Positions 17,041 to 36,846 of a stretch of DNA of 64,000 nucleotides are shown here, piece after piece (positions within the stretch are counted from its first letter, which is position 1; every line of letters begins with the position of its first letter). The DNA is taken from positions 5,885 to 69,884 of the forward strand of contig CAYUCL010000004.1 of NCBI GenBank assembly GCA_964443325.1. Direction: 5' to 3'. The position numbers were made by a program, and so were the translations under genes. The notes beneath the pieces were generated by a model that worked only from the letters and a program-made list of their open reading frames with translations, was not told the DNA's origin and did not search any database. The stretch comes from an uncultured Dehalococcoidales bacterium. GTDB taxonomy: Bacteria; Chloroflexota; Dehalococcoidia; E44-bin15.

Positions 17041-17160
17041 GCGAGATTCACCTCCTCAAAGCTTCGTTCTGCACTTCGCCAGCAGCGCTGGCGCAACATG
17101 ATGGATGGCTTACCGACAAGCTTTACCCTGCTTGTCACGAATACAACCACTGGTTACCAA

Positions 17161-21556: not shown

Positions 21557-21748
21557 CTTTTCCCCTCCTTAATATTATCTCTAAGAAGCCTCCATATTAT
21601 CTGCTTAGCTTCCATTACCACCCTCGCTGCTTCCCGTCCAAATCGACCCGTATCGTCTTAGCGTACACTATGCAGTAGTATACCATCTTATGCTGGCAAA
21701 GACAGCTTAAAAGAGCGCAGGCCTCATTTTTTTCAGACGTTGCCAAGA

Positions 21749-21837
21749 CACTATTTTTATTGATATTGACAGTAGATAGGAACGAGCCTAGACTTATCAT
21801 TGGATATGGATATACGAAATCTGAATAGTGCCCTGGA
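21749..21837 (+). repeat. Direct repeat, left copy (~90 bp); includes a truncated duplicate of the 5' end of the 24027 gene
   Basis: CACTATTTT...ACAGTAGATAG-GAACGAGCCTAGACTTATCATTGGATATGGATATACGAAATCTGAATAGTGCCCTGGAA matches 23970–24059 with a few substitutions and one indel. It encodes MDIRNLNSALEGQ* from an ATG at 21805. Confidence 0.85.
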
Positions 21838-21948
21838 AGGACAATGATAGATAAGGAAAAAGGAAATGAGTTTTAAAAATGAACCACAGCAAAAGATTGA
21901 TATTGAATAAGTAGAAGAGGTTCATACCAAACCAGTTTTATACAATTT

Positions 21949-22323
21949 GAATAGTCCCCAATAATTGACATAAAAATTACCAATTGCGATGGAAAAGGTC
22001 AGACATCCGGTCAATCAAAAAGATGGGAGGCTACAGTCTGGATTTGCTTAAAGATCAGGGAAGATAGAGTTTGGAAAGCAACTTGGTTTTCAACAGGGCT
22101 TGGAGGACTTATTACGGCATATGGAAGTGCCCTGACTGAAATGGTGAAAGGGAAAACAATAAGCGAAGCTTTGCGGATTCAAGCCGAGGATATATCTACA
22201 AGTTTGGATTTACATGAAACTGGATTTGGAGCTTGGTTTACAAGAACATTAGTAGAGGCAATCAACAATTACAATATTTATAAGTCAGCTCCATGGAAGA
22301 GAATGTATGAAAAGAAATATTAG
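21949..22323 (+). pseudogene. IscU/NifU-like scaffold remnant lacking the conserved cysteines and an in-frame start
   Basis: Translation (…TWFSTGLGGLITAYGSALTEMVKGKTISEALRIQAEDISTSLDLHETGFGAWFTRTLVEAINNY) aligns with IscU (…[62 protein letters not shown]). The first ATG in this frame is at 22141, and the Cys ligands are replaced. Confidence 0.35.
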
Positions 22324-22348
22324 AAGAATGGGGAAAGGAGGTGAAAGT

Positions 22349-22744
22349 ATGGAATTGTTAATAGCTTTCAGTACCGATGATGGTGAGAATTTGAACAATG
22401 GTCATGCAGGTGACGCCAAGTATTTCTATCTCTATAACTTTTTCGATAATAAGGAAGAGTTTGTTGAACAAAGAATGAATATCGAATTGAGGAGAGATCA
22501 ATCTCTAAAACCTGGAAGTCCAGAAATGGCCAAGGCTAGAGCTGCTGTTTTTAAGAACTTGGATGCATTGGTTGGTAAGGAATTCGGCCCAGGTCTTCCC
22601 AATTTGTTGAAGCAATTTGTCTGTGTATTGATAAGGGTAGACACTATCAGTAAGGCAATTGAAGTCGTGCGTAACAATCTGGACAGAATAAGGGAAGAGA
22701 AGGAGAAAAAAGAAGGTAGAAAACATATTGTGCTGAGACCATAG
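22349..22744 (+). CDS. NifX/NifB-like dinitrogenase FeMo-cofactor-binding domain protein with KE-rich tail
   Basis: MELLIAFSTDDGENLNNGHAGDAKYFYLY follows the MKIAxxSxDGxxxxxHFGxAxxFxIY pattern. A strong AAGGAGGTG RBS lies 7 nt upstream of the ATG at 22349 (the tracked ORF starts 42 nt earlier). Confidence 0.5.
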   Translation: MELLIAFSTDDGENLNNGHAGDAKYFYLYNFFDNKEEFVEQRMNIELRRDQSLKPGSPEMAKARAAVFKNLDALVGKEFGPGLPNLLKQFVCVLIRVDTISKAIEVVRNNLDRIREEKEKKEGRKHIVLRP

Positions 22745-22857
22745 CGGATAGTAGAGACCAATTGCAAAGATGGAGGTTGGAAGTTATTCTAAACAAGTAA
22801 AATAGCAGCAGAATAAGGGCGTTTTTTTAAACTTTAACAATGGAAGGTAAATAGAAA

Positions 22858-23247
22858 ATGGTAGCTAGAACAGACGTTAAAGAAAAGATAAAGAAAATTT
22901 ATGAGGTTTTGCCCAAATTGGATGACCAGCGATGTGGTTATAAAACTTGTGGGAAATTTGCTAAGGCAGTAGCTGAAGGAAAGGCGCCATGTTATGGATG
23001 TGTTAGTGGTGGGCCGGAGGTAGCTGCTAAAGTGTGTGAAATTATGGGAGCCAGAGTCCCTGAACAAGCAACTCGTCAGTCTGGCATTAATGCTGGATTT
23101 TACCAGCCCGCATTCGGTGGAGGTGGAAGGGTAGGAAGGGGCATGGGGCAAGGTTTTGGTAAAGGTCGGGGCATTGGACCAGGCCGAGGTATGGGTCGAG
23201 GTGGTGGCATGGGCCGAGGTTTTGGCAGGGGGCGACCTAGAAGATAA
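22858..23247 (+). CDS. RnfB-N-terminal-like Fe–S cluster domain fused to a Gly/Arg-rich (GRG-repeat) tail
   Basis: LPKLDDQRCGYKTCGKFAKAVAEGKAPCYGCVSGGPEVAAKVCEIMG resembles the RnfB N-terminal FeS domain (LPxTxCGxCGYPGCRxYAEAIxxGxA..CP). The C-terminal ~45 aa are GRGMGQGFGKGRGIGPGRGMGRGGGMGRGFGRGRPRR. Confidence 0.5.
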   Translation: MVARTDVKEKIKKIYEVLPKLDDQRCGYKTCGKFAKAVAEGKAPCYGCVSGGPEVAAKVCEIMGARVPEQATRQSGINAGFYQPAFGGGGRVGRGMGQGFGKGRGIGPGRGMGRGGGMGRGFGRGRPRR

Positions 23248-23303
23248 AGTAGAAAAAGGCAATAGTAGATTCCCTAATCATCGGTGGATTTAAGGAAGGA
23301 TAA

Positions 23304-23873
23304 ATGTTCCCGATAATAAAAAATCAGAGAAGGACTAAAGTTTTTTATGCTTTAACCTCGATAATCTACGACTCAATAAATCCTCACATCTACACAAAAG
23401 AAATGAAAGATATTCTAATTAAAGAGATCGAGGGAGATAAGATATTGGATGTTGGAGTTGGAACTGGTTATACCACTAGGGAATCTGAAATAGCAATTGG
23501 GATAGATATATCCAAAAGGATGCTGTTTCGAGCTAATGATTATAGAGGCTCTTTAATTTTGGCTGATGCTCTCTATGCGCCCTTTATACCAGGAACTTTC
23601 GATACCATTATCTCTGCTGGCTCTCTTTATTATTTCCCTGAGCCCTTGGAAGGATTAAGAATATTTCATTCCTTGCTAAAGGCAAACGGGGTAGTTCTGT
23701 ACCTCGGCCCAAATATAAAATTTTTAAAGTTGTTGGTTCAGGTCTACAACCAAGCAGAGCTAGAAGAATTGTTTGGACATAGTAGATTTAGAATTGAGAA
23801 AATAATGGAGGTAGGACGGGGTAACATTGCCTATTTTGCTAAGGCGAGGAAGCAAAGAGAGCATACCGGGTAG
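23304..23873 (+). CDS. Class I SAM-dependent methyltransferase
   Basis: ILDVGVGTGYTT glycine-rich SAM-binding motif. Confidence 0.65.
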   Translation: MFPIIKNQRRTKVFYALTSIIYDSINPHIYTKEMKDILIKEIEGDKILDVGVGTGYTTRESEIAIGIDISKRMLFRANDYRGSLILADALYAPFIPGTFDTIISAGSLYYFPEPLEGLRIFHSLLKANGVVLYLGPNIKFLKLLVQVYNQAELEELFGHSRFRIEKIMEVGRGNIAYFAKARKQREHTG

Positions 23874-23969
23874 TGCCAGATAGTCAGAATAGGGATTAGA
23901 ATATTTAGAGAAAGTAGAGAGAAAATGTTGTGTTTCAATGGATGTCATTCAGTCAGCTTGCTACCCAGT

Positions 23970-24059
23970 CACTATTTTGGGGACATTTACAGTAGATAGA
24001 GTACGAGCCTAGACTTATCGTTAAATATGGATACACGAAATCTGAATAGTGCCCTGGAA
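23970..24059 (+). repeat. Direct repeat, right copy (~90 bp), spanning the promoter and 5' end of the 24027 gene
   Basis: See the left copy at 21749–21837. Confidence 0.85.
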
Positions 24060-24653
24060 ACCTTATTAAAAGAAAACGCCGTCAACCAGTTGGCAAAGAT
24101 CTTAGCCTACGCCTCAAAAAAAGGCAGGATCTCCTACGAAGAGGCAGAACACGTACTTGATGATGACCCCGAGGATGCTTTGATTCTAGCTGAGCAGCAG
24201 AGGTTACTGATTCCGCTGAGATCAGTCAAAGATACGCTGGAATGGGATCATTCAGTTTTACTTCTCAAACCAGGTGAAATTTACAAGATGCCCAACGTGG
24301 TTAGGTATTTAGTAGAACAAGCTAGTAGAACCGGTCAATGGGATCCAGAATATGCTGTGGCCCAGATCTTCAGGGAGATGGGAGAGCCAAGCTGGAATAT
24401 AATGCCAGCATTGGTTAAGAAACTGGGAGAGGAAGCTAGCTATAACAAGCTCAATGCTGTTCAGATAAAGCAAGTATGTAGCCAGCTTGGGCTGGGAGGT
24501 AGGGTGGATTCACTAATCGCTGGACTCAAGGGAGCTGGAGCGATGAGCCCTAAGTTGAGTTCGATTGTTGAAGTGATCAGGGCAGGATCACCTATATATG
24601 AACTCAATCCCTCTCTTTTCATGTCGACATCTGGCAACGCAACCTCCACTTGA
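24027..24653 (+). CDS. Hypothetical protein immediately upstream of cas10 (possible HTH N-terminus)
   Basis: 208-aa ORF with no recognisable family. Its first 11 codons are duplicated at 21805. Confidence 0.4.
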   Translation: MDTRNLNSALETLLKENAVNQLAKILAYASKKGRISYEEAEHVLDDDPEDALILAEQQRLLIPLRSVKDTLEWDHSVLLLKPGEIYKMPNVVRYLVEQASRTGQWDPEYAVAQIFREMGEPSWNIMPALVKKLGEEASYNKLNAVQIKQVCSQLGLGGRVDSLIAGLKGAGAMSPKLSSIVEVIRAGSPIYELNPSLFMSTSGNATST

Positions 24654-24780
24654 TACTATTTCACTGCCTGTTAGAGCACGTCATTGCCATCCTTCAATAC
24701 CGGCCTATTTGACATCTTCCTAAGTGCCTGAGATAATTTGGTAACCCCATGGCCCTGGTTGGGCTCATGGCGGAGATGAT

Positions 24781-27201
24781 ATGTCCCAAGAAGAGAGCCT
24801 CATTCTTGCTGCTTTGCTCCACGATGTAGGTAAGTTCTGGCAACGAACTTCTCACCCGCTCGAACGGAAGGACCAAGCCCATGCCCTCCTCTCCCATCAG
24901 TTTATTCTGGACCACTTTGGCCAGAAATGGAGCCAAAGCGCCAGCCTGGCATCTGCACATCACCAACCTGACGATTACCTGGGCAAGTTGATTCAGCTTG
25001 CAGACCATCTATCGTCCCAAGAAAGGGATCACCAAGAGGAGGGCAACCCCGCTGTCAAACAGCTCCTGTCGGTCTTCTCGCAGGTTGGCTCCGGTAGCAG
25101 CCCTTATTATCTGCCTCTAAAGCCTCTGGACATTCACAGGGATCCTATCTTTCCCAAGCAAGAGACAGACAAGGAACCAGAGAAGTCCTACACTGCATTG
25201 TGGGATAACTTTGTCCAAGAAACGGCAACGGTCACGGGACTGTATGGGACAGATTTCCCAGCACTCATCAATACGTTTTATCACCTTCTGTGCAAGTTCA
25301 CCTGGTGCATCCCCAGCGCCTACAATGCGGACATCCCCGATGTCTCGCTGTTTGACCATCTCCGCACCACATGCGCCATCGCCCTCAGCCTATATCGCTC
25401 CGGCATCTCTGAGGCTGATGTGGATTTACTGCTCGCAGGCAGCTCTGATGCAGCGAAAGAGAAACAGTACCTGTCCCTGATAGGCGGCGATATTTGCGGC
25501 GTGCAGCGTTTTCTCTACACACAAACTTCCAGGGGGGTAGCCAAAGGGATTCGCGGGCGCTCGTTCTATCTGGAGCTCCTGACTGAGTTAGCAGCCCTTT
25601 GGCTGTCACGCCAGTTAGGGCTCTACACCATCAACCTGCTCTATGTCGGCGGGGGGCACTTTTATATTCTAGCCCACCACATAGACGGTCAGACGCTATC
25701 ATCTCTACGTAGGGATTTTTCACAGGCGCTATTAGAGCATCACCACGGTGCGCTGCACCTGGCTCTTGCAACTCAAGAACTGTGCCCGCAGGACTTCGGC
25801 CATTTCTCCAAAGCATTGGCTGGTGTACACAAACAGCTTGGCTGGGCAAAGCGGCGGCCATTTGGCGACCTGGCACCAGGGAAATTCTACGAAGAGATTC
25901 TCAAACCAAAAGGTGCCAGAGAACCTGCAGACGTATGCGCGGTGTGCGGGGCTGAGGGTGCGCACCATAAGCTCGGAGAGGGAGAGGAGAGAGAATGTGA
26001 CCTGTGCCATTCTCTCAAGCACCTGGGAGAGCAACTGGCGGATGCCAACTACCTCCTTATCGCCCCCAGACAAGAGGGACGGCAAGATGTTCAGGTTCAA
26101 GGATGGCAAAAGCTCTTTTTCTTTGGCCTAGGATTTGTGGTGAAGCTCTTGGATGAACCCCATCACTCGGATTTGAACAGGCTTGGCCCAGGGGCGACAT
26201 TGCTGCGACTGAACTCCACCGACTTTCTGAGCACCGAGGTAGTCAACGCTATCAAGACCGTGAAGAATCCACCAGCGCTTGGGTTTCGTTTTCTAGCCCA
26301 GGCGTCACCACGAAAGAAGGTGGAGCCTGCAGAGATTGCGGATTTTGAGACCGTGGCCCAGGCTTCTGAAGGAGTGCCTTTATTGGGTGTCTTGCGCATG
26401 GACGTGGACGACGTAGGATGGCTTTTCCAGCATGGGCTTGGCGAAGATGCCAGCATATCCAGAGTCTGCTCAATGAGTTTCCTTCTCCGTCTTTTTTTCG
26501 AGGGCTGGCTCAATAGCCTGTGTACCAGGTGGAACCCCCATGACGGGAAAGACAAGGTCTACGCCATCTATTCCGGGGGTGATGACCTTCTTATCACCAG
26601 CAGTTGGAGTGAGATAGCCGAACTTGCCTGGAATATACACCGCGACTTTTCAGAGTTTACTTGCTATAACCCCCAGGTGCACATCTCCGGCGGTACGACA
26701 GTCGATGACCCCCACCTCCCTCTGTATCAACTAATTAAAGCAGCTACAGAATCTTTGGAGAGCGGCGCCAAAAGAATGCCGGGGAAGAACGCCTTCACCT
26801 TCCTCGGCCAAACGCTCAACTGGTCACAGTTTCAGAAGGCGGGCGAGTGGCGCGATATCTTGAAGAGTATAATAGCCATCAATGGACGGATTGAAAAGGA
26901 TAAGGCGCCTCGAACCGTCCTTAATCTTTTGATGGAGCTTCACCAAAGCTACCTCGAAGGACAGAGTATGAATGACAGCAGGCGGCTGTTCCATGGGCCA
27001 ACGATTCACTACGGCCCCTGGATGTGGCACGCAGCCTATCATCTTTCCCGTATGATGGAAGGGGTAGAAGGCCCGGCCCAGGCCCAACTAGCAGAGATAA
27101 GGGAAGCTCTAATGCAAGCCGAGCGCCTGTCAGTTGAGCTTCCCCAGCTAGCACTGGCGGCACGGTGGGTGGAACTGCTCACTCGCACGGAGGGACTATG
27201 A
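24781..27201 (+). CDS. cas10: Type III CRISPR Cas10/Csm1 (HD nuclease + Palm/cyclase)
   Basis: N-terminal HD motif (ALLHDVGKF). A treble-clef zinc finger (CAVCG...CDLCHS). GGDD cyclase motif (IYSGGDDLLI). 806 aa. Confidence 0.9.
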   Translation: MSQEESLILAALLHDVGKFWQRTSHPLERKDQAHALLSHQFILDHFGQKWSQSASLASAHHQPDDYLGKLIQLADHLSSQERDHQEEGNPAVKQLLSVFSQVGSGSSPYYLPLKPLDIHRDPIFPKQETDKEPEKSYTALWDNFVQETATVTGLYGTDFPALINTFYHLLCKFTWCIPSAYNADIPDVSLFDHLRTTCAIALSLYRSGISEADVDLLLAGSSDAAKEKQYLSLIGGDICGVQRFLYTQTSRGVAKGIRGRSFYLELLTELAALWLSRQLGLYTINLLYVGGGHFYILAHHIDGQTLSSLRRDFSQALLEHHHGALHLALATQELCPQDFGHFSKALAGVHKQLGWAKRRPFGDLAPGKFYEEILKPKGAREPADVCAVCGAEGAHHKLGEGEERECDLCHSLKHLGEQLADANYLLIAPRQEGRQDVQVQGWQKLFFFGLGFVVKLLDEPHHSDLNRLGPGATLLRLNSTDFLSTEVVNAIKTVKNPPALGFRFLAQASPRKKVEPAEIADFETVAQASEGVPLLGVLRMDVDDVGWLFQHGLGEDASISRVCSMSFLLRLFFEGWLNSLCTRWNPHDGKDKVYAIYSGGDDLLITSSWSEIAELAWNIHRDFSEFTCYNPQVHISGGTTVDDPHLPLYQLIKAATESLESGAKRMPGKNAFTFLGQTLNWSQFQKAGEWRDILKSIIAINGRIEKDKAPRTVLNLLMELHQSYLEGQSMNDSRRLFHGPTIHYGPWMWHAAYHLSRMMEGVEGPAQAQLAEIREALMQAERLSVELPQLALAARWVELLTRTEGL

Positions 27202-27698
27202 CGCAGGTGGAAGGGTCTTCAGCGGAGTCTCAGCCACAAAAGGAACCGGCGTCTTCAGAGGAACTGCGCAAGATCATTGTCGACGGAGATGCCGAGGTAC
27301 TGGTAAACTGCGCCGAGCGTATAGGGAGGAAGCTGAAAGAAATGAACCTGGCGACGCATCAAATACGAGGCATCCTCGGTGCTATTCATATGATCGAGAC
27401 GACCTGGTCCTCTAATCCGGCTGAAGCACAGCGGGAGCTCCGTCTGCTGAAGCCCAAGCTGGCATATCAGTCAAAGAAAGTGAAGGAAACACTGGATGGG
27501 CAGGATGTATTTCCCGTGGAGGAATTGCGAGAGGTCATTTGCGGCGCTATTGACATCGTGCTCAAGCAAACAGACGAGCCAGAGGCAGGCGGAAAGGCAA
27601 ATGCGGGGGGGACGGAGCGCCACAACTCCTTCAGGCGCTTGGTGAGTTTCTTTGAGGCCATTGTCGCATATCACCGCTACCACGGCGGCAGGGACTAG
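27165..27698 (+). CDS. csm2: Csm2 (Cas11 small subunit); true start probably at 27195
   Basis: Small alpha-helical protein containing the LLKPKLAYQSKK motif typical of Csm2. Positioned between cas10 and csm3. Confidence 0.75.
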   Translation: MGGTAHSHGGTMTQVEGSSAESQPQKEPASSEELRKIIVDGDAEVLVNCAERIGRKLKEMNLATHQIRGILGAIHMIETTWSSNPAEAQRELRLLKPKLAYQSKKVKETLDGQDVFPVEELREVICGAIDIVLKQTDEPEAGGKANAGGTERHNSFRRLVSFFEAIVAYHRYHGGRD

Positions 27699-27707
27699 GG
27701 GAGTGTA

Positions 27708-28523
27708 ATGGCAGAAACCGAACGTAAAATCCAGTTGCATGGAAGGATATTCATCACCGGCAGCATAGAAATCGTGACTGGCCTGCACATCAGAGCGGCA
27801 AGGAGAGCTTTAGCCATTGGCGGTTTGGACAATCCTGTAGTGCGAAACCCCATTACCGGCCGCCCTTATATCCCCGGCTCCTCGTTAAAGGGAAAACTGC
27901 GCTCCCTGCTGGAAAAGCACTACAACAAGTCTCAACAATGGGCAATGGGTGGAGTTCGTATCCATGCCTGTTACAAGTTTGACGAAAAGGGAAACAGAAT
28001 ACCCGACGAAGAAGCCTACTCGAATTGTCAAATCTGTCCCATCTTTGGCATACCTGCAGGGTTCGCCGTGCTACCAACCCGCCTCATAGTGCGGGATGTG
28101 CCTCTTGACGAGAACAGCGCACAAAGGCTAGCCAGGACCAGGACGGAACTCCCCTTCACCGAGGTCAAATGGGAAACATCCCTTGACCGGGTTACCGCGG
28201 CGGCTACTCCCCGCCAGGTCGAGCGGGTGCCTGCCGGTGCCATCTTCGCCCCTTTGGAACTGGTCTACAATGTGTACGAGGATGCCGATGTGGACCGTTT
28301 CATGCACCTGCTGGACGCCATGCGGTTTCTGGAGGATGACTATCTCGGTGGCCTGGGAACCCGCGGCAGTGGCAAGATCGCTTTCCAGGAGCTTTCACTG
28401 ACCGCCCGCACCCGCGAGCGGTATATGGAGGAGAAGACTTTCGAGACAGGGTTATCCCTGAGAGATCTCATGGCCAAGGAAGAGGAGACGATGAACTGGC
28501 TACACCAGACGTTCTCCCGGTAG
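27708..28523 (+). CDS. csm3: Csm3 (Cas7 backbone RAMP)
   Basis: GGLDNPVVRNPITGRPYIPGSSLKGKLRSLLE is near-canonical for Csm3, including the G-rich loop. Confidence 0.9.
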   Translation: MAETERKIQLHGRIFITGSIEIVTGLHIRAARRALAIGGLDNPVVRNPITGRPYIPGSSLKGKLRSLLEKHYNKSQQWAMGGVRIHACYKFDEKGNRIPDEEAYSNCQICPIFGIPAGFAVLPTRLIVRDVPLDENSAQRLARTRTELPFTEVKWETSLDRVTAAATPRQVERVPAGAIFAPLELVYNVYEDADVDRFMHLLDAMRFLEDDYLGGLGTRGSGKIAFQELSLTARTRERYMEEKTFETGLSLRDLMAKEEETMNWLHQTFSR

Positions 28524-29576
28524 ATGTTGATCATGGCAGAGACATGGCTGTACAAGCTTAAGCCCCGCTCTTCCTTTCACTTCGGTGAGGGGGGCCTGGG
28601 CATTGAGGCTACGGACGAAGTCTTCCATTCCGATTCCTTTTTTGGTGCTCTGGCCATAGGTGTGAGAATGTGGGAGGGCGAGAATGCGCTGGTTGAGCTC
28701 CTCTCCCAGTTTCAGGAGCAGCCACCTTTCAGAATCACTTCCCTGTTCCCCTATGCTGGTGAGGTGCTTCTTTTCCCCAATCCCATGGTCAATCTCCCCC
28801 TTGAGGGAGAAGCCGAGGAAAAGCAAGGTATTCGGCTTAAATACGTACGCTTCATCTCCCAGGGTATCTTAGAACCAGTGCTTCGTAGCGAGCCTCTGGA
28901 TGGGCATCTAATCAGGGATAACCTTTGTCAGGGTGGAAGGGTGTGGCTTACGCAGCAGGAGCGCACCGCCTTGCCGCTAGCAGGAAATGAACCTATCCTG
29001 TGGCGACGCCACATCGTGACCAAGGTTGCCGTGGATCGGCTGGGTATGGCTTCACATAGCTATTACGCCGCACAGGTTGGTTTCTCCCCTGGCTGTGGTC
29101 TCTATTTCCTCCTCGAAGTAGAAGACCCTGCTTCAAAAAGGCTTGTGGAAAGCGCACTATATTATTTATCTGAGGCTGGACTTGGTGGCGAAAGGAGCGC
29201 TGGTCATGGCCAGTTTTCGTTCGAGTCCGCCAGCCCATTTGCACCATTCTGGCCTACGGATGGGGACTCGTTCATCACCCTCTCGCTTTATCACCCCACA
29301 CTGCCTGAGCTGGAGGCCGGTGTCCTAGACGGACAGGCCGCCTACGAACTTACTCAGAGGGGCGGGTGGGTGAACTCTCCAGAGCGAGCGGGGCAGAGGC
29401 GCAAGTCCGCCTCCTTCATCGGTGAAGGGTCTGTGCTATGCTCCCTGGGCAAGCCAAGCTATGGGGAACTGGTAGATGTTACACCGGAACTAGAGCCCGA
29501 GAAGCACCCTGTATATCGCTACGGGTTTGCCTTCCCCATTGGAGTTCATAGAAGGGTGGAAGTCGATGAGCCGTGA
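28524..29576 (+). CDS. csm4: Csm4 (Cas5-group RAMP)
   Basis: N-terminal YKLKPRSSFHFGEGG...SDSFFGAL is typical of Csm4. Its position in the operon also fits. Confidence 0.8.
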   Translation: MLIMAETWLYKLKPRSSFHFGEGGLGIEATDEVFHSDSFFGALAIGVRMWEGENALVELLSQFQEQPPFRITSLFPYAGEVLLFPNPMVNLPLEGEAEEKQGIRLKYVRFISQGILEPVLRSEPLDGHLIRDNLCQGGRVWLTQQERTALPLAGNEPILWRRHIVTKVAVDRLGMASHSYYAAQVGFSPGCGLYFLLEVEDPASKRLVESALYYLSEAGLGGERSAGHGQFSFESASPFAPFWPTDGDSFITLSLYHPTLPELEAGVLDGQAAYELTQRGGWVNSPERAGQRRKSASFIGEGSVLCSLGKPSYGELVDVTPELEPEKHPVYRYGFAFPIGVHRRVEVDEP

Positions 29577-30669
29577 ACTGCACAGCACCTATCGGCTGAC
29601 CCTGGAGACCCTCTCACCTATTCACATCGGCTCAGGGAAAGGTGAGTTGCTCCTGGACTACGATTTCATTGTGGAGGGGAACCGTGCACTGGTGGTGAAC
29701 CTGGAACGGCTGCTGGGAGAGATAGACGACAAGAGGCTCAAAGCGGCAGGAGCGGATCCAAAGCTGAGTCTTCTGCTGGCCCCAGAAGAGATAGAGCGAG
29801 TCAAAGCCTATGAGATAGATATCGCCGCAGGGCACCCCGACCGGATTCGGGAGCATGTGAAGGATGCCTTCGACAAGCTTTACATTCCCGGAAGCTCGAT
29901 AAAGGGGGCGCTGCGCACCGCCCTGGCCTGGTCCGCCCACCACGGCGCACTAACGCTGGGCGGGCTGGGTGAGCGCAATGACCCCACAAAGGCCGATGAC
30001 TCGGTTGAGGCGGGAATATTCGACTACGATCCGAGAGACACCCATCGCGAACTGCTACGCGCTATGCGGTTAACCGACGCATACCCGCAGGACGGTGTCA
30101 TGCCCAGAGCATTGCCGGTTACCGTCTTTTCGCTTTACGGTCAGCCACCCTCTCTCAAACCAAGGGGAGAGCCAACTTTTTTAGAGGTGATCCCCAAAGG
30201 CACCACCATTGAGTCTACCCTGACTCTGGATAGATATGTTCTTCGGCCTGAACGCAGGGTACGGCGAATGTATCACTTTCGCAGGCGACACTTTTTCGAC
30301 CAGTTGGTGGAACGCTGCCGTGCATTCTCCGCAGAGATAGTTAAGCTCGAGCTTGACTTCTATAGCGATTGCGGCATCTGGAAGCTGCAGGGGTTCTACG
30401 AAACGTTGGCGAGGAGACAGGCAGCACTGAAAGATAGCGAATTCCTCCTGCCCATCGGTTGGGGCACCGGTTGGTTGGGCAAGACCCTGGGGACCAAGTT
30501 GACCCCAGGTGAGGTGAGCACGGTTGCCGAGACCTATCACCTGGAGAAGTGGCACGGCTCGCTATTCCCCAAAGTCTTCCCCAAGACCAGGCGGCTCGTT
30601 GGCGATGGGCAAGCTAGAGAACCTCTCGGCTGGGTGAGAATTAGCCTGCAGGGCCCCACCGGCCGTTGA
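29566..30669 (+). CDS. csm5: Csm5 (Cas7-group RAMP)
   Basis: YRLTLETLSPIHIGSG and LYIPGSSIKGALRTAL RAMP motifs. The likely ATG at 29566 overlaps the end of csm4. Confidence 0.8.
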   Translation: MSRELHSTYRLTLETLSPIHIGSGKGELLLDYDFIVEGNRALVVNLERLLGEIDDKRLKAAGADPKLSLLLAPEEIERVKAYEIDIAAGHPDRIREHVKDAFDKLYIPGSSIKGALRTALAWSAHHGALTLGGLGERNDPTKADDSVEAGIFDYDPRDTHRELLRAMRLTDAYPQDGVMPRALPVTVFSLYGQPPSLKPRGEPTFLEVIPKGTTIESTLTLDRYVLRPERRVRRMYHFRRRHFFDQLVERCRAFSAEIVKLELDFYSDCGIWKLQGFYETLARRQAALKDSEFLLPIGWGTGWLGKTLGTKLTPGEVSTVAETYHLEKWHGSLFPKVFPKTRRLVGDGQAREPLGWVRISLQGPTGR

Positions 30670-30780
30670 GCCTGCCTGGAAATAGCCATAAACGAAAGCT
30701 GGCTGCCATAAAGAACGCTAATAGTCACAAGGAGCGCCTGGTTCACTAATCCTCGACACTTTCTGGAGGTAACAAAACAA

Positions 30781-31623
30781 ATGCTGCTGAGCGCCATCAT
30801 AGCGCTACAAGCCCGCAAGGAAGCATTATTGCCCCCCTACCTGGGCAAGGCAGCACATGCGCTATTCCTTCGACTTGTGGCCACTACTGACCCCAACATG
30901 GGAGCAAAGCTACACGATGATAGTGAGGCCAAGCCCTTCACTGTGTCGGGCCTTGTGGGCCTGCCCAGGAGGAGCGCAACAATGCATATCAATGCTGGCC
31001 AGGTTTGCTTATTGCGCTTCACTAGCTATGAGGACGACCTCTCAAACCTGCTGGCGGAAAAGGTGTTGCCATCGTTGCCTCAGGAGTTTGAACTTGAGAA
31101 CGCCCTCTTTTCAGTCGAGGATGTCTTCATGCAAAGCGGCGCTCATCCCTTGAGCAGACAAACGTCATATCAGGAGTTAGCTCAAGGGCATCTGCTCGAT
31201 GCCAGAAGCGCCCCCACAAGAGTCAAACTCTTTTTCATGTCGCCTACTACATTCAGGTCGGGGGGGAAGAATATACCGTTGCCGCTTCCAGGATTGGTGT
31301 TTGGCAGCCTCGCCGACCGATGGAATGCCGTGTCGCCAATCACCATCTCCAGAGAGGTAAGACGTTACGCTGAGGAATTTGTGGCAATTTCCCAATGCCA
31401 GCTCAAAACACGTACGGTGGAAATTGCTGGAGGCAAACAGGTAGGTTTTATCGGTTCGTGCTCGTATGTCGCGCTGAGGCATGACGCATACTGGCGTAGG
31501 GTTATGAACCTGCTGGCGGAGTTCGCCTTTTACAGCGGCGTGGGCTATAAGACAACCATGGGGTTTGGCCAGACGTTCACCCACCGTTTCGCTGCAAAAC
31601 GCTCCACCTCGCAATCAAGCTGA
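30781..31623 (+). CDS. cas6: Cas6 crRNA endoribonuclease
   Basis: The C-terminal glycine-rich loop GVGYKTTMGFGQ matches the Cas6 GhGxxxxxGhG signature. 280 aa. Confidence 0.8.
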   Translation: MLLSAIIALQARKEALLPPYLGKAAHALFLRLVATTDPNMGAKLHDDSEAKPFTVSGLVGLPRRSATMHINAGQVCLLRFTSYEDDLSNLLAEKVLPSLPQEFELENALFSVEDVFMQSGAHPLSRQTSYQELAQGHLLDARSAPTRVKLFFMSPTTFRSGGKNIPLPLPGLVFGSLADRWNAVSPITISREVRRYAEEFVAISQCQLKTRTVEIAGGKQVGFIGSCSYVALRHDAYWRRVMNLLAEFAFYSGVGYKTTMGFGQTFTHRFAAKRSTSQSS

Positions 31624-31743: not shown

Positions 31744-31767
31744 AGGGGCGTTCAATTGAACGCCCCT
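31744..31767. promoter_or_regulatory. Perfect 24-nt palindrome AGGGGCGTTCAATTGAACGCCCCT downstream of cas6
   Basis: Exact self-complementary sequence with no T-tract following it. It could be a transcript-end hairpin or a dimeric protein binding site. Confidence 0.4.
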
Positions 31768-32168
31768 ACAAACGCCACAGGTTTCAGAGAGAGTCAAGAG
31801 GGTCCCACACGCGCCACGTGTCATTGCGAGGAGCGGCAGCGACGAAGCAATCTGAGCGACGTATTACTAATAGATGAGCTTGCTTCGATGCCACTTGGTC
31901 CCTGTCCGCCTTGCGGATTCCGATACCCCGTTCGTCCTGAGCCTGTCGAAGGGTTTCCCTTCTAGCACAGATCAAGGTGTGTCCCTATAAGCACATCCCA
32001 GAGTGGGTGAAAAAAAATAACAAGTACGCTGCGAAGCAGATATCATAGGGATGGGGTAAGGTTTCATAAACGAGTACAGCCACTTGCCAATGTTGGTCGA
32101 AAGTGGTAGCATTTTGGTACCGCAAAATGGTGCATATAGCTTAGATTTCGCCACATTGTTGTCGTCAG

Positions 32169-32572: not shown

Positions 32573-32827
32573 ATGACCAGAACTGTTAAAGTAACTCTGA
32601 GCTTACCACATGGATTACTTCGCTTTGCTGATGGATTGGCTGCCAGGGAAAAGGTTAGTCGCAGCAAATTCATAGCTGGTGTTCTACAGAAGCTGGCTGA
32701 CAATGAAGAGGAACGTCTAATGGCAGAAGGCTATCTGGCTATGGCAAACGAAAACCAGGAATTTGCCGAGACTGTTGTGCCATTGGTTGATGAAGTATTA
32801 TCGGATTGGAAGCGAAATGGCCATTAG
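32573..32827 (+). CDS. Ribbon-helix-helix (CopG/MazE-like) antitoxin
   Basis: 84-aa N-terminal RHH (TVKVTLSLPHGLLRFADGLAAREKVSRSKFI). The gene overlaps the mazF start. Confidence 0.65.
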   Translation: MTRTVKVTLSLPHGLLRFADGLAAREKVSRSKFIAGVLQKLADNEEERLMAEGYLAMANENQEFAETVVPLVDEVLSDWKRNGH

Positions 32828-33158
32828 CCGTGGTGAGATATACTGGGTAAACTGGAATCCGGGAAGGGGTAGAGAGCAGGTCGGCATACGACCTGCTCTC
32901 GTTATTCAGAACGATACAGGCAATCAATACAGTCCGACGACCATCGTTGCTGCTATTACTACAGCCCCAGTCAAGGCATATCCATTTATCGTGCCCATTA
33001 CAGCCTCTGAAAGCGGATTGCCGCAGGACAGCAGTGTGAATCTCTCTACCATATTGACTGTCTCGAGAGATAGACTGAAAGATAAGTGTAGTGAGCTCAG
33101 TGCCCAAAAGATGGCCGAAGTGAATGATGCGATCAACAAGAGCCTGGCACTGGATTGA
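32820..33158 (+). CDS. mazF: MazF/PemK-family endoribonuclease toxin
   Basis: RGEIYWVNWNPGRGREQVGIRPALVIQND...TIVAAITT fits the PemK/MazF fold. The ATG at 32820 overlaps the antitoxin by 8 nt; the tracked ORF begins 57 nt earlier. Confidence 0.8.
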   Translation, partial: AISRGEIYWVNWNPGRGREQVGIRPALVIQNDTGNQYSPTTIVAAITTAPVKAYPFIVPITASESGLPQDSSVNLSTILTVSRDRLKDKCSELSAQKMAEVNDAINKSLALD

Positions 33159-33250
33159 AACAAACGTAGTGTCGAGGTTTCGCTCGTTCGTGGTAGCAAT
33201 ATAGATATAAAGCCTGTCTGACTCTGCACACAAGGAGATAACAGCCCCTT

Positions 33251-33385
33251 GATCCGTGAGTCCGGATTCAAAAGAGTCGTATGTTAGTTGGTTTTTTCTG
33301 AGGCGTGAAGGTCCTTCTGTGAAGGATTCCTTCACCAAAGCTGAGGGAGAGGACTCCCTCAGTCCTCAAGAAGAATCCACGGATT
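33251..33385 (+). repeat. Dispersed ~130-bp structured repeat element, copy A (MITE-like or small RNA)
   Basis: About 90% identical to 41830–41960. Internal hairpins GTGAAGG..CCTTCAC and GAGGGAG..CTCCCTC, with short inverted termini (GATCCGTG … CACGGATT). Confidence 0.7.
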
Positions 33386-33473
33386 AAGGAGCCAATCAAG
33401 TATCGATAAGAGCGTTGTGTATGCTATAATACTGGTGTATCACGATGGAAGGGGGGACTATGGGTATTGAATC

Positions 33474-33800
33474 CTATAGTTGCCCCTTCTGCTTTTCAAA
33501 CTTCCATCGATCATAGTATATGAACATGATATTACATCTAGCAGCCTTCCTTAACAAATGAGAACAACTATCCTGTCGGCACGCTATAACCAATTTGAAT
33601 ATATCCACACTGCGCAAATAATCCACTAAACATGCTATATCTCCATCGCCTGTTATGACTACAGCCTTATGGTTATTGTTAATAATTATCATTGCGTGTA
33701 GAACTATCTCGGCATCACAATTCCCCTTGATTTTTCCGTCAAGCAATGGGAGCACAGTCTTGTAGACTAGAGTGTACTCATAATCTTTTATGTCACTCAA
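33474..33800 (-). CDS. NYN-domain (LabA-like) protein, probably a truncated fragment
   Basis: GNCDAEIVLHAMII...AVVITGDGDIACLVDYL matches the C-terminal half of NYN/LabA domains. It lies in an AT-rich region, and 108 aa is short for the family. Confidence 0.5.
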   Translation of the reverse strand: MSDIKDYEYTLVYKTVLPLLDGKIKGNCDAEIVLHAMIIINNNHKAVVITGDGDIACLVDYLRSVDIFKLVIACRQDSCSHLLRKAARCNIMFIYYDRWKFEKQKGQL

Positions 33801-33900: not shown

Positions 33901-34602
33901 GTGAGCAAAGGAAGACAGCTATACGAGCTTCAAGAGGTTGACCTGGAGATAGAGGCGAAGCAGGAAGCTCTGTCTAACGTGCAGAGCCGATTAGGCCAGA
34001 GCCAGGCTCTTGATGAGGCTCGCGCTAATCTTGCTACACAGAAGAACTGCGTTTATGAGCTAAATGCAAGCCAGCGAGCTGGGGAGTGGGAGGTGGAGGA
34101 CCTGCGAACGAAGGTAGCCGATATAGAGCAGAAGCTTTATGGTGGCGCGCTGAAAAACCCCAAAGAGCTGGCAAGTCTTCAGGAGCAGGCGGAACATCTT
34201 AAAAAAAGACGTAGGGAAGAGGAAGATAAAGTACTTGACATAATGACTGAATTAGAGGCGGCACAGGCGAAATTAGCGATGATAAGCCAGGAGGTAGAAA
34301 GTTTTGAGAAAAGCTGGAAGGAGGAGCAGACCGAGCTTTCCAGGGAGCAGGATAGGTTGAGCACTAATTTAGCTAACCTTGAGCAGAAGCGAAAAGACCT
34401 CGGCTCAAGGATCGATGCAGCGAGCCTGAGGCTTTATGAAGAACTAAGGACAAAGAAACAGGGCAGGGCAGTGGCCAAGGTTGAACAGGGCATGTGTCAG
34501 GGATGCAGAATTGTCCTCCCGGTGAGAGAGTTACAGCGAGCAAGAGCAAGTCAAGAATTGGTGCAGTGTGGTAGTTGTGAGAGGATTCTTTTCGTGAGCT
34601 AG
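33901..34602 (+). CDS. COG1579-type coiled-coil protein with C-terminal C4 zinc ribbon
   Basis: Long coiled-coil region followed by CQGCRIVLP...CGSCERIL. Confidence 0.7.
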   Translation: MSKGRQLYELQEVDLEIEAKQEALSNVQSRLGQSQALDEARANLATQKNCVYELNASQRAGEWEVEDLRTKVADIEQKLYGGALKNPKELASLQEQAEHLKKRRREEEDKVLDIMTELEAAQAKLAMISQEVESFEKSWKEEQTELSREQDRLSTNLANLEQKRKDLGSRIDAASLRLYEELRTKKQGRAVAKVEQGMCQGCRIVLPVRELQRARASQELVQCGSCERILFVS

Positions 34603-34605
34603 GCG

Positions 34606-36018
34606 ATGAGAACGATTGGCTATTTTCGAGTAACCGAAGAGACTGGAAGGTCCCCCTCACTGGTGGAGCAGCAGGAGGGTTTTGCCCGCTTTTGCCAGGA
34701 ACGGGGTTACCAGCCGGTAATGACATTTGTTGATACGGGCTCAACAGGGAAAGTTGGCCGAACTCAGTATCAGCGCATGCTCAGCTACATCCGGAGGGAT
34801 GGAACGGACACTGTAGTTGTGGTGAAAAGTCTTAGCCACCTTCACCCCGACGTGCAGGAATTGATGTATCGCCTTATTGAAATTGATGCCCTCGGGGCAA
34901 AGGTTCTCTCAATCGATGAAGAGCTTGCCAGCCCCTTGGAAACGGTTATCCAGATTTGGTCTACCCGGCGCCAGAGTGGAATAAGAGGGGATGCTGTGAG
35001 GGAGGCGATGAAGCTCAGGGCAGTCAGAGGAAAAGGATTGGGCAAGCCACCCTATGGCTATAAGCTGGGTGCCGACAAGAGGCTGGAGATCGTCCCTGAG
35101 GAGGCAGCCAATGTAGAACTCATCTATCAGCTTTATGTTCAAAAAAACATGGGCGTGCGCCTCATCGCTCGATACCTGAATGAGCAGGGCATCACCACCA
35201 GAAGAGGTGGCCTGTGGAGCATCGTTGGCATCCGAGATATCCTGCGCAATCGGGCATATCTGGGGACATCCTCCCGTTTCGGCTTCAGGGTTCCTGACAG
35301 CCACCGACCGATAATCAATCATGAAACCTTCAACAAAGTGCAGGAACGACTTACCGCCAAGACAAAGCCAAGGGGTCGCGTCCAAAGGTCGCCCTTCCCT
35401 CTATCAGGTCTGGCTTACTGTGGATACTGTGGCAACAGGATGACCGGCGTGAACCGCAGTCAAACCTGGACAACGCTCAAGAAGGGAGGGAAGAGGAAGG
35501 GGGAGTATCGCTACTACCAGTGCCAGTCGAGAACTAATCAAAGCGTTTGCCAATACCATACAAGGAGAGCTGAAGATTTAGAGGGCTTTGTGCTCGGTAC
35601 ACTACGGAGTTATAACAACCTTGAGGCTCTGGTACAATTGACGAAGGTGCGTGATTTCAGTGACGAACCGTCAGAGCACACGCGGCTAGAGAGAAAGCTG
35701 AAGACTCTGGATCGAAAATTCCGAGATCATCTCAACCAGGCGACCGATGGTGCCATCCCCTTGGAAGAATTCCGTGTTGTGAGTGGGGATTTGATTTGGG
35801 AGAGGCGGCTTTTGGAGGAAAGGATCGCCCTTCTTAAAGCTGAAGCAAAGCAGGAGATAACCTCCGAGCACCGGAAGGATTATATGTTGGAGAAGCTAGA
35901 AGAGCTTCAAGAGCGATGGGACACCATGACCTCACCGGCAAGAAAAGCGTTGCTTCAGCATATAATCGAACGCATTGTTGTCTACGACGACCATGTGGAA
36001 ACTATCCTCAGGCTGTGA
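34606..36018 (+). CDS. Large serine recombinase homolog with substituted catalytic residues (probable pseudo-recombinase)
   Basis: Resolvase-like N-domain (GYFRVTEETG) followed by a recombinase domain (GKPPYGYKL) and a zinc ribbon (CGYCGNRM...CQSR). The nucleophile Ser is replaced by Thr, and the DRLGR motif is replaced by SLSHLHP. Confidence 0.6.
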   Translation: MRTIGYFRVTEETGRSPSLVEQQEGFARFCQERGYQPVMTFVDTGSTGKVGRTQYQRMLSYIRRDGTDTVVVVKSLSHLHPDVQELMYRLIEIDALGAKVLSIDEELASPLETVIQIWSTRRQSGIRGDAVREAMKLRAVRGKGLGKPPYGYKLGADKRLEIVPEEAANVELIYQLYVQKNMGVRLIARYLNEQGITTRRGGLWSIVGIRDILRNRAYLGTSSRFGFRVPDSHRPIINHETFNKVQERLTAKTKPRGRVQRSPFPLSGLAYCGYCGNRMTGVNRSQTWTTLKKGGKRKGEYRYYQCQSRTNQSVCQYHTRRAEDLEGFVLGTLRSYNNLEALVQLTKVRDFSDEPSEHTRLERKLKTLDRKFRDHLNQATDGAIPLEEFRVVSGDLIWERRLLEERIALLKAEAKQEITSEHRKDYMLEKLEELQERWDTMTSPARKALLQHIIERIVVYDDHVETILRL

Positions 36019-36025
36019 TTAGCCT

Positions 36026-36430
36026 ATGGCAAAACGCATAACCATCTATACCGACGGCGCTGCTCAGCCCAACCCAGGGCCTGCCGGCGTAGGCATCGTC
36101 ATCCTGAATGAATCAGGAGCGGTTATATTCGAGGCCTCGCATAGTATTGGCTACGCCACAAACAACCAGGCAGAATATAAAGCTGTCATCAAAGGTCTCG
36201 AGGAAGCAGCAAGGCTACGCGCAGAGCATATTGAGGTCAGGTCTGACTCAGAGCTTCTGGTGAAGCAGATCAAAGGCGAATACCGAGTAAAGAATCCGGG
36301 GCTGAAGCCCCTATTTCAGCAAATCCACCAGCTAATTATAGCATTTCCGTCTTTTTCTATCGTCCACATCCCCAGGGAGCAGAACAGAGCAGCGGACGCA
36401 TTAAGCCGCAAGGCATTGAGACGCAGTTAA
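36026..36430 (+). CDS. rnhA: Ribonuclease HI
   Basis: TDGAAQPNPGPAG, NNQAEYKAV and SDSELLV motifs, with catalytic D/E/D residues present. 134 aa. Confidence 0.85.
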   Translation: MAKRITIYTDGAAQPNPGPAGVGIVILNESGAVIFEASHSIGYATNNQAEYKAVIKGLEEAARLRAEHIEVRSDSELLVKQIKGEYRVKNPGLKPLFQQIHQLIIAFPSFSIVHIPREQNRAADALSRKALRRS

Positions 36431-36458
36431 TTGATTTGGCGTCGGTTTTATTGTAAAC

Positions 36459-36846
36459 TGAAGGTGGCCAGGTAAACCGGGTGACCGCTCCCCGATTATC
36501 GGGGGGAGGAAAGTCCGAGCTCCACCGGGCAGGAGGCTGGGTAACTCCCAGGCCCCGATAACGTGAGTTATCGGGGACGGAAAGTGCCACAGAAACACAC
36601 CGGTCGCCTTAGGCGACTAAGGGTGAAATGGCGAGGTAAGAGCTCACCGCCCCGGTGGTGACACCGGGGGCAGGGCAAACCCCCTCCGGAGCAAGACCAA
36701 ATAGCGGGGAAGAGGACGCCCGGCCTCGTTACAACCCCCGGGTGGGTCGCTTGACCCTGATGGTAACATCAGGGCTAGATAGATGGTCACCGCCCCAACA
36801 CTGTTGGGGTACAGAACTCGGCTTATAGGTTTGCTTGGCCGGCTCT
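36459..36846 (+). ncRNA. rnpB: RNase P RNA (bacterial type A)
   Basis: Conserved blocks GGAAAGTCCGAGCTCCACCGGGCAGG, AGTGCCACAGAAA, GGTAAGAGCTCACC, AGGGTGAAATGG and ACAGAACTCGGCTTA. P1 pairing GGCCAGG…CTTGGCC. Confidence 0.9.

Follow-up and report, generated by a model that had tools for sequence, protein, structure and literature searches.

An intact type III-A (Csm) effector operon with its own cas6 in an uncultured Dehalococcoidales bacterium, with no CRISPR array, adaptation genes or CARF effector close by

A 64,000-nucleotide stretch of DNA from an uncultured Dehalococcoidales bacterium, referred to below as the window, carries a type III-A (Csm) operon standing apart from any CRISPR array. 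The locus raises the questions of whether it is a working module or a remnant, where its guide RNAs would come from, and whether a receptor for the cyclic oligoadenylate (cOA) that its Cas10 may produce is encoded among its neighbours.

Composition of the operon and its catalytic motifs

Six contiguous + strand genes at 24781-31623 were identified as cas10/csm1, csm2, csm3, csm4, csm5 and cas6. Identities were assigned with NCBIfam equivalogs, whose curated cut-offs are exceeded by all six genes, and both Pfam and PADLOC concur, the latter naming the large subunit Cas10a. The starts of csm2 (27198) and csm5 (29566) follow the gene calls made on metagenome contigs of identical sequence. The operon and the features around it are as follows.

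24027..24653, + strand: ORF 24027, PF27374 (AF_2141), a neighbour outside the Csm system; predicted tandem winged-helix protein
24709..24737, + strand: candidate promoter-like site (TTGACA, 17 nt, GATAAT, with TG; 11/12 matches in a consensus scan)
24781..27201, + strand: cas10/csm1, 806 aa (TIGR02578, 611 bits against a cut-off of 170, full model length covered; Pfam Cas10 palm2, Csm1_B and HD)
27198..27698, + strand: csm2, small subunit, 166 aa (TIGR01870, 48 bits; PF03750)
27708..28523, + strand: csm3, predicted Cas7 backbone RNase, 271 aa (TIGR02582, 221 bits)
28524..29576, + strand: csm4, Cas5-like, 350 aa (TIGR01903, 220 bits; PF17953)
29566..30669, + strand: csm5, 367 aa (TIGR01899, 102 bits)
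30781..31623, + strand: cas6, predicted endoribonuclease, 280 aa (TIGR01877, 60 bits; PF10040, PF19308)
31744..31767, + strand: perfect 24-nt palindrome AGGGGCGTTCAATTGAACGCCCCT, seen in the sequence 3′ of cas6
31900..31953, + strand: one copy of a REP-like unit (...CCGTTCGTCCTGAGCCTGTCGAAGGG), the sole repeat-like sequence near cas6

The first 4 nt of csm2 overlap the end of cas10, stop codon included, and csm5 and cas6 are separated by only 111 nt, at the spot where complete relatives have csm6. TIGR02578, PADLOC Cas10a and the PDB match to Csm1 of T. onnurineus (ToCsm1, E 5e-41) all identify a III-A Cas10/Csm1 large subunit, which shares a single operon with Csm2 and the RAMP subunits Csm3, Csm4 and Csm5. 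For the cas6 product, the top PADLOC model is Cas6d (1e-42) and the nearest solved structure is T. thermophilus Cas6B (4c98). The initial annotation had described cas10-csm2-csm3-csm4-csm5-cas6 as complete and in canonical order, which NCBIfam, Pfam and PADLOC bear out, and the locus is genuine: a type III-A effector module, intact and accompanied by cas6.

Cas10 contains the motifs LLHDVGKF, GDICGVQRF, CxxC...CxxC, MDVDDVG and IYSGGDDLL, comprising the HD nuclease motif (H13 D14), palm1, a four-Cys zinc finger, DVD and the GGDD cyclase motif. Alignment to PDB 6kc0, and to 6kbd as well, matched these motifs to T. onnurineus Csm1 position by position, in keeping with the earlier claim that HD and GGDD are intact. 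Csm3 GGLDNP lines up with GGIDNP of ToCsm3 (PDB 6muu, 6iqw; top PDB sequence match, E 4e-42), and its catalytic Asp is conserved. At the level of sequence, then, the Cas10 HD and GGDD motifs and the Csm3 Asp are all in place. The same five Csm subunits in the same order, Cas6, the Cas10 HD, zinc-finger, palm1 and palm2 GGDD elements and the Csm3 catalytic Asp are shared with the canonical III-A systems of S. epidermidis, S. thermophilus, T. onnurineus and M. tuberculosis, whereas the operon in the window is without csm6, cas1/cas2 and an adjacent array and has low identity to characterised systems.

The promoter-like site lies 44 nt 5′ of the cas10 ATG, between ORF 24027 and cas10, within a segment (from 24701 on) that is 84-90% identical in relatives without ORF 24027, and its consensus elements suggest that it may act as a promoter. 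The palindrome AGGGGCGTTCAATTGAACGCCCCT is conserved among close relatives in the intergenic alignment; it occurs once, is not a CRISPR repeat, and is probably the terminal hairpin of the operon. A repeat-like signal 3′ of cas6 in the related contig L014 was rejected as CRISPR, consisting of three 35-nt head-to-tail REP-like copies with no spacers.

The array, the adaptation genes and the effector

III-A loci typically have an array beside them, which is not needed to class an effector module; cas1/cas2 and the ancillary csm6 are likewise typical of III-A and not obligatory. No CRISPR-like repeats were found in the 64 kb window by TRF, repeat search, an 11-mer scan at 45-110 nt spacing or Rfam CRISPR-DR models, and no CARF, SAVED, Csm6, Cas1 or Cas2 domains were detected in ~60 ORFs scanned (Pfam, E<=1e-3). 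Searching the window by tblastn with Csm6, Cas1 and Cas2 of the complete locus L114, described below, gave no match at E<=1. Beyond the window, ~6 kb on the left and 7.6 kb on the right, read from identical metagenome contigs, hold only housekeeping genes and no repeats; across the resulting ~78 kb, there is no array, cas1/cas2, csm6 or CARF/SAVED gene. In eight syntenic relatives, up to 10 kb on each side was searched and no array was found, and a fuzzy search with the L114 repeat (<=14/37 mismatches) found no solitary or degenerate repeat in the window or the relatives. The repeat, Pfam and tblastn searches thus uphold the initial annotation, which had reported no array, cas1/cas2 or CARF effector in the window, and an array plus CARF effector just outside it is not present in the two flanks. 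Because none is near the operon, we infer that the array, as that annotation held, and any receptor must be located elsewhere.

What the operon has lost relative to a full locus is shown by L114 (metagenome contig Ga0556612_000128), with the order cas10-csm2-csm3-csm4-csm5-csm6-cas6-cas1-cas2-array and an array of 13 copies of GTTGAAAAGGCGCTAATCCCCCGAGGGGGATTGAAAC. L114 shares the backbone and the Cas6 family with the window (identity 49% for Cas6, 51% for Csm3 and 39% for Cas10) and differs in possessing csm6 (with a HEPN domain), cas1, cas2 and the 13-repeat array; the window has a tRNA gene at the cas1/cas2/array spot. A second of these more distant relatives, the Chloroflexota MAG locus L016, has the same cas10-csm2-csm3-csm4-csm5...cas6 backbone and Cas6 family and differs by its csm6 homologue, and in both L114 and L016 csm6 sits between csm5 and cas6. 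This comparison suggests that an L114-type ancestor gave rise to the operon by losing csm6, its adaptation genes and the array beside them. Together with L114 and L016, the operon provides a clean comparative series on the role of a cyclase-intact Csm complex without Csm6.

Reduction of this kind has precedents, and the rarity implied by the initial annotation was overstated, since array-less type III modules (PMC5576922) and effector-less cyclase loci (PMC11229360) are both documented. Array-less type III modules take crRNAs in trans, as in a Marinomonas III-B system with I-F arrays and in S. islandicus Cmr (PMC5576922). Like the module in the window, these are interference modules without their own array or adaptation genes and presumed reliant on distant arrays; unlike it, they are III-B and often lack cas6, whereas the window module is III-A and retains a cas6 of its own. 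Neither a partner array nor a co-resident type I system was identified for the latter. III-A loci keep cas1, cas2 and array more often than III-B (PMC5576922), which makes the reduction of the window operon a little unusual for its subtype. Type III loci that have the cyclase and no known effector are common, and effectors acting in trans have been proposed for them (Hoikkala et al. 2024, PMC11229360). The window operon resembles such loci in combining an intact GGDD cyclase with no known cOA effector in the locus. HD is found in 65% of III-A Cas10 proteins, and the 133 loci singled out in that study are without it (PMC11229360), unlike the window Cas10, in which HD is intact; an intact HD nuclease would offer an effector-independent route to immunity.

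Conservation of the locus among related Dehalococcoidia

In eight contigs of related Dehalococcoidia (L012, L013, L014, L031, L032, L035, and L011 and L033, which are of a single assembly), the array-less, csm6-less operon occupies one and the same chromosomal site, flanked by thiolase and tRNA-Met genes, with Cas10 identity to these syntenic relatives of 50-90%. The MAGs CAZZJX01, DAOUVR01 and JAUWRG01 are the sources of L012-L014, and CAZYLE01 is that of L011 and L033. HD and GGDD are present in all 8, and the Cas10 catalytic motifs persist in lineages in which Cas10 identity is down to 50-58%. Against the three closest relatives (L012-L014), dN/dS of the six operon genes is 0.10-0.53; for the flanking genes it is 0.09-0.45, with dS similar to that of the operon genes.

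These data bear on whether the operon is the non-functional, decaying relic of an earlier CRISPR-Cas locus. Loss of csm6, cas1, cas2 and the array would fit decay, as would the csm5 match in L012, which is broken into two segments. However, all six ORFs are undisrupted, both in the window and in the majority of its relatives, their dN/dS is on par with that of neighbouring housekeeping genes, and the catalytic motifs have outlasted the divergence of Cas10, all of which make decay very unlikely. Given the shared site, the flank-like dN/dS and the retention of HD and GGDD, the operon is a maintained module rather than debris. A serine recombinase, MazEF and a tRNA gene lie nearby, and membership of a recent mobile island was also considered; it was rejected on clade-wide synteny and flank-like dS. 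The csm genes, a CT398-like gene, the recombinase and an RNase H gene are syntenic clade-wide, with dS as in the flanks, and the only insertions near the operon are a MazEF + NYN segment and the cassette upstream of ORF 24027. Selection and synteny across species show that a module reduced in this way can persist stably and need not be a transitional stage.

The operon is thus likely to be a vertically inherited, reduced III-A module with its own Cas6, derived from an L114-like full locus and served by an array and any effector in trans, in a marine-sediment Dehalococcoidia lineage. Its transcription would be driven by its own promoter just 5′ of cas10. Pre-crRNA from an array >30 kb away in the genome would be cut by Cas6, and the crRNA taken up by Cas10, Csm2, Csm3, Csm4 and Csm5, which would assemble on it. 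Binding of a complementary invader transcript would elicit RNA cleavage by Csm3 and single-strand DNase activity of the Cas10 HD domain, and the same trigger would probably start cyclic-oligoadenylate synthesis at the GGDD palm. As no CARF effector is linked, immunity would rely on the HD DNase and the Csm3 RNase, any cOA receptor being encoded in trans. Supply of crRNA in trans is an assumption here, because no array was found in the ~78 kb searched. The retention of GGDD with no known receptor in that span also counts against this reading, having no explanation if the HD nuclease alone suffices.

The same pattern could be read as an array-free module, guided by a non-CRISPR RNA, having a non-defence role, or signalling to an unlinked new receptor class. 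Long vertical retention, clade-wide and at a fixed site, of an operon that is array-less, csm6-less and cyclase-intact would agree with this, as would the lack of an array in any contig examined. Nevertheless, the search spanned <=10 kb on each side in the relatives and ~78 kb here, and arrays are commonly remote; cas6 is kept, which argues for ordinary repeat processing; and arrays and effectors acting in trans are well documented (PMC5576922, PMC11229360). We consider the array-free reading unlikely. Should complete genomes contain no array or CARF/SAVED gene, a non-CRISPR guide RNA or an undescribed receptor class would be implied, an outcome to which we give equally little weight; a compatible array elsewhere, for example one with a ATTGAAAC-tag repeat, would speak for crRNA supply in trans. 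As a reduced module served in trans, the operon belongs to a kind of reduced locus already known and opens no new mechanism; with it, an uncultured Dehalococcoidia lineage from marine sediment joins the carriers of minimal array-less, effector-less III-A modules.

Neighbouring genes as candidate receptors

The initial annotation had proposed ORF 24027 and the cassette genes upstream of it as candidates for the signal receptor, and had suggested a structural prediction of the ORF for a Rossmann-like CARF fold. PF27374 (AF_2141) is assigned to the protein P0001, identical to the ORF 24027 product, and to all 120 homologues listed. The predicted structure is instead a helical tandem winged-helix (pLDDT 87.6), and the Rossmann-like alpha/beta fold of CARF/SAVED sensors, whose central parallel sheet makes the ligand pocket, is absent from this model.

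A role for ORF 24027, with or without the cassette genes, as the cOA receptor that is lacking, or as an accessory or regulator dedicated to Csm, is suggested by the position of the ORF on the same strand as cas10, 127 nt upstream, and by orthologues at the corresponding position in L034 (89% identity) and in L031 and L035 (57%); a winged-helix protein, as modelled, could moreover be a transcription regulator. Against this stand the confident model without a Rossmann/CARF sheet and the fact that L012, L013, L014 and L032 lack the ORF at this site and have an operon that is still intact and under selection. The AF_2141 family is mostly unlinked to csm, with 78/80 metagenomic loci having no csm neighbours and 2/80 having them; the genes typically found beside it are FeS PF04060, NifX-like, methyltransferase, DUF1638 and nitroreductase genes. 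Among 82 sequences, the four copies located next to csm genes group together in a single clade of 4, which indicates one juxtaposition event, and cas10 has its own promoter-like site 3′ of ORF 24027. The upstream cassette (21842-23959) is a lineage-specific, recent insertion flanked by a ~100-nt direct repeat. A receptor or dedicated Csm role for ORF 24027 or the cassette is accordingly highly improbable. If the array-free reading were true, the lineage-specific winged-helix AF_2141 protein would be a possible regulator.

Three other neighbouring ORFs were considered as sensors and rejected. The NYN ORF at 33474-33800 is a 5′-truncated fragment inside an insertion, and the ORF at 18192-20195 encodes a polytopic membrane protein that carries an EEP domain at its C terminus. 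The ORF at 14683-15453 has no CARF match and is variably present; it scores against the PADLOC candidate PDC-S02, with a weak match to HicB.

The type III-A operon and its catalytic motifs

The six ORFs at 24781-31623 all run in one direction, and each scored above the curated cut-off of its NCBIfam equivalog (Cas10/Csm1, with a full-length match of 611 bits, Csm2, Csm3, Csm4, Csm5 and Cas6); Pfam and PADLOC searches concurred with these names. Gene calls on identical metagenome contigs placed two of the starts:

27198 (+), start of csm2, overlapping the cas10 stop
29566 (+), start of csm5

The translated Cas10 carries LLHDVGKF at residues 11-18 and, further, GDICGVQRF, a CxxC...CxxC zinc finger, MDVDDVG and IYSGGDDLL, and alignment to T. 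onnurineus Csm1 (PDB 6kc0) revealed a residue-for-residue match in the HD, palm1, metal-binding and GGDD motifs. The catalytic Asp of Csm3 is retained (GGLDNP opposite GGIDNP of ToCsm3), and Cas6, whose closest solved relative is T. thermophilus Cas6B, conserves the glycine-rich loop. The gene names and the alignments to solved structures therefore confirm the initial annotation of a complete cas10-csm2-csm3-csm4-csm5-cas6 operon with HD and GGDD motifs.

Array, adaptation genes and effectors in the window and its relatives

No CRISPR-like array was detected in the 64 kb window by Tandem Repeats Finder, a direct-repeat search, a search for exact 11-mer copies at array-like spacing (45-110 nt) or Rfam including its CRISPR-DR families. 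A Pfam scan of ~60 ORFs spanning the window found no CARF, SAVED, Csm6, Cas1 or Cas2 domains; outside the operon the ORFs have housekeeping or metabolic roles or encode, among others, MazEF, a serine recombinase and RNase H. With Csm6, Cas1 and Cas2 from a relative whose locus is complete as queries, tblastn gave no window match at E ≤ 1, in agreement with the initial reading of the window. Contigs encoding proteins identical to window proteins extended the view by ~6 kb to the left (TldD/PmbA, Na/H exchanger, HhH-GPD) and 7.6 kb to the right (NadE, GlnA, P-II, Amt, GOGAT). Both flanks hold housekeeping-type genes and no repeats; therefore, no array with a CARF effector lies just outside the window within that range.

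Cas6 homologues beyond the clade display a fuller III-A layout. The metagenome contig L114 (Cas6 49%, Csm3 51% and Cas10 39% identical to the window) has cas10-csm2-csm3-csm4-csm5 followed by Csm6 (483 aa, with HEPN domain matches), cas6, cas1, cas2 and 13 copies of GTTGAAAAGGCGCTAATCCCCCGAGGGGGATTGAAAC, and a homologue of its Csm6 also sits between csm5 and cas6 in the Chloroflexota MAG locus L016, whereas 111 nt separate csm5 from cas6 in the window. With up to 14 of 37 mismatches allowed, no copy of the L114 repeat was found in the window or its relatives. The window sequence 3' of cas6 contains:

a conserved 24-nt palindrome, a putative hairpin noted as a sequence feature
31900-31953, a REP-like element, one copy, ending in CCTGAGCCTGTCGAAGGG
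tRNA-Met

Of the relatives, only L014, a related Dehalococcoidia contig, shows anything repeat-like close to cas6: three head-to-tail 35-nt REP-like units at 17009-17125. The units in the window and L014 might be taken for a mini-array, yet they have no spacers.

The closest genomes, in which Cas10 is 79-90% identical, are MAGs of uncultured Dehalococcoidia/Dehalococcoidales. In seven related contigs (L012-L014, L031-L033 and L035) the operon is housed in one chromosomal block, in the order ACAD, orf123, GGACT, membrane EEP protein, thiolase, csm operon, tRNA-Met, CT398-like, serine recombinase, RNase H, RNase P RNA, BirA and AFOR; an eighth, L011, covers cas10-csm4 only. In the sequence covered, which reaches up to 10 kb to either side of the operon, none of these eight loci contains an array, cas1/cas2 or csm6. 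Pairwise dN/dS against L012-L014 was 0.10-0.53 for the six operon genes and 0.09-0.45 for flanking genes, with similar dS, and HD and GGDD are kept even where Cas10 identity falls to 50-58%. By synteny, dN/dS and motif retention, then, the reduced operon is an old one that has been passed on vertically and kept by selection.

In the deep clade members L031, L032 and L035 the Csm proteins are far more divergent than some of the flanking genes: Cas10 is 50-58% and Csm2 39-59% identical to the window, whereas thiolase reaches 85-92% and ACAD 83%. This fits either defence genes that evolve more quickly or a replacement of alleles at one fixed site. The csm5 match of L012 (10951-12040) falls in two segments, possibly through an indel or frameshift, and the thiolase gene of L014 (9255-9817) is in three pieces; misassembly or pseudogene formation in the MAGs concerned may account for both.

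Genes upstream of cas10

ORF 24027 and the cassette preceding it had been proposed as sources of the signal receptor. The ORF 24027 product (208 aa) had no match in profile searches of local Pfam, NCBIfam and PADLOC libraries, and its populous family bears the precomputed Pfam label PF27374 (AF_2141). Three sampled homologues neighbour methyltransferase, FeS (PF04060), DUF1638, nitroreductase and FUR genes and no cas genes, and csm genes occur at 2 of 80 metagenomic family loci, a count limited by many short contigs; both (L034 and L035) lie within the syntenic Dehalococcoidia block. The gene is missing at the operon site in four relatives (L012, L013, L014 and L032). In a neighbour-joining tree of 82 sequences the Csm-adjacent copies (window, L034, L031 and L035) form a clade of four, which indicates a single juxtaposition event with later losses. 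ORF 24027 was therefore rejected as a receptor candidate. A near-consensus promoter-like site (TTGACA, 17 nt, GATAAT) between it and cas10 falls in a segment conserved in relatives lacking ORF 24027, and is a putative promoter by consensus.

The 2.1 kb cassette (21842-23959) is an insertion that separates the thiolase gene from ORF 24027 and is absent from the 90%-identical relative L034; its genes were likewise set aside as receptor candidates. A direct repeat of ~100 nt flanks it (21742-21841 and 23960-24059), a duplication of the region upstream of ORF 24027 together with its first 11 codons. The cassette encodes a 60-aa ORF and NifX-like, FeS (PF04060) and SAM-methyltransferase genes, types that usually neighbour AF_2141-family genes elsewhere. 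ORF 24027 and the cassette genes adjoin the Csm system through insertion history, not as partners. The stand-alone character of the module, with no array, adaptation genes or CARF effector nearby, thus stands, whereas comparative data speak against both proposed receptors.

Predicted mode of action and other features of the window

An ordinary Csm interference module reliant on components in trans is the best-supported reading. A distant array would provide the pre-crRNA that Cas6 processes, and the Csm complex would cut target RNA via Csm3, switch on the HD DNase of Cas10 and probably synthesise cyclic oligoadenylates. What the analysis shows are features at the level of sequence; we infer these activities and the trans crRNA supply from family knowledge and documented array sharing by type III systems (PMC5576922). 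Among 1113 type III loci surveyed, HD occurs in 65% of III-A Cas10 proteins and HD with cyclase in 34% of all Cas10 proteins, and 133 cyclase-positive loci lacked any effector, known or candidate, so that effectors acting in trans were proposed for them (PMC11229360). Those 133 are HD-negative, whereas the present locus keeps HD; from the survey figures, an effector-less locus retaining HD thus lies inside the known range. A III-A locus without array and adaptation genes is less usual than a III-B locus without them (PMC5576922), but it is not new in kind.

Several other features of the window were recorded:

14683-15453 (+), 256-aa ORF beside tRNA-Asn in a low-GC stretch
18192-20195 (+), 667-aa membrane protein
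32573-32827, HicB/MazE-like antitoxin
~32817-33158, PemK/MazF toxin
33474-33800 (-), NYN-domain ORF, 5'-truncated
36469-36841, RNase P RNA (Rfam, 291 bits)

The 256-aa ORF has a match to PDC-S02, a defence candidate of PADLOC (E 7e-8), and a weakly HicB-like C-terminus; L014 carries it, whereas L013 has a second CoA-transferase gene in its place, and it may be a small gene of variable occurrence with a defence or TA-like role. The 667-aa protein joins a polytopic membrane N-terminal region of ~440 aa to a C-terminal, PGAP2IP-like endonuclease/exonuclease/phosphatase domain, and in the covering relatives L012-L014, L031, L032 and L035 it is conserved at a position two genes upstream of cas10. 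The antitoxin/toxin/NYN segment (32573-33800) is an insertion immediately 3' of tRNA-Met, absent in L013, L033 and L035. Next to it, 33901-36841 holds a CT398-like zinc-ribbon protein, a 470-aa large serine recombinase, the RNase H gene and RNase P RNA; the genes are syntenic, at 70-92% amino-acid identity, in the relatives reaching that far (L013, L032, L033 and L035), and the recombinase has the look of a fixed chromosomal gene, not of one carried by a mobile element that arrived recently.
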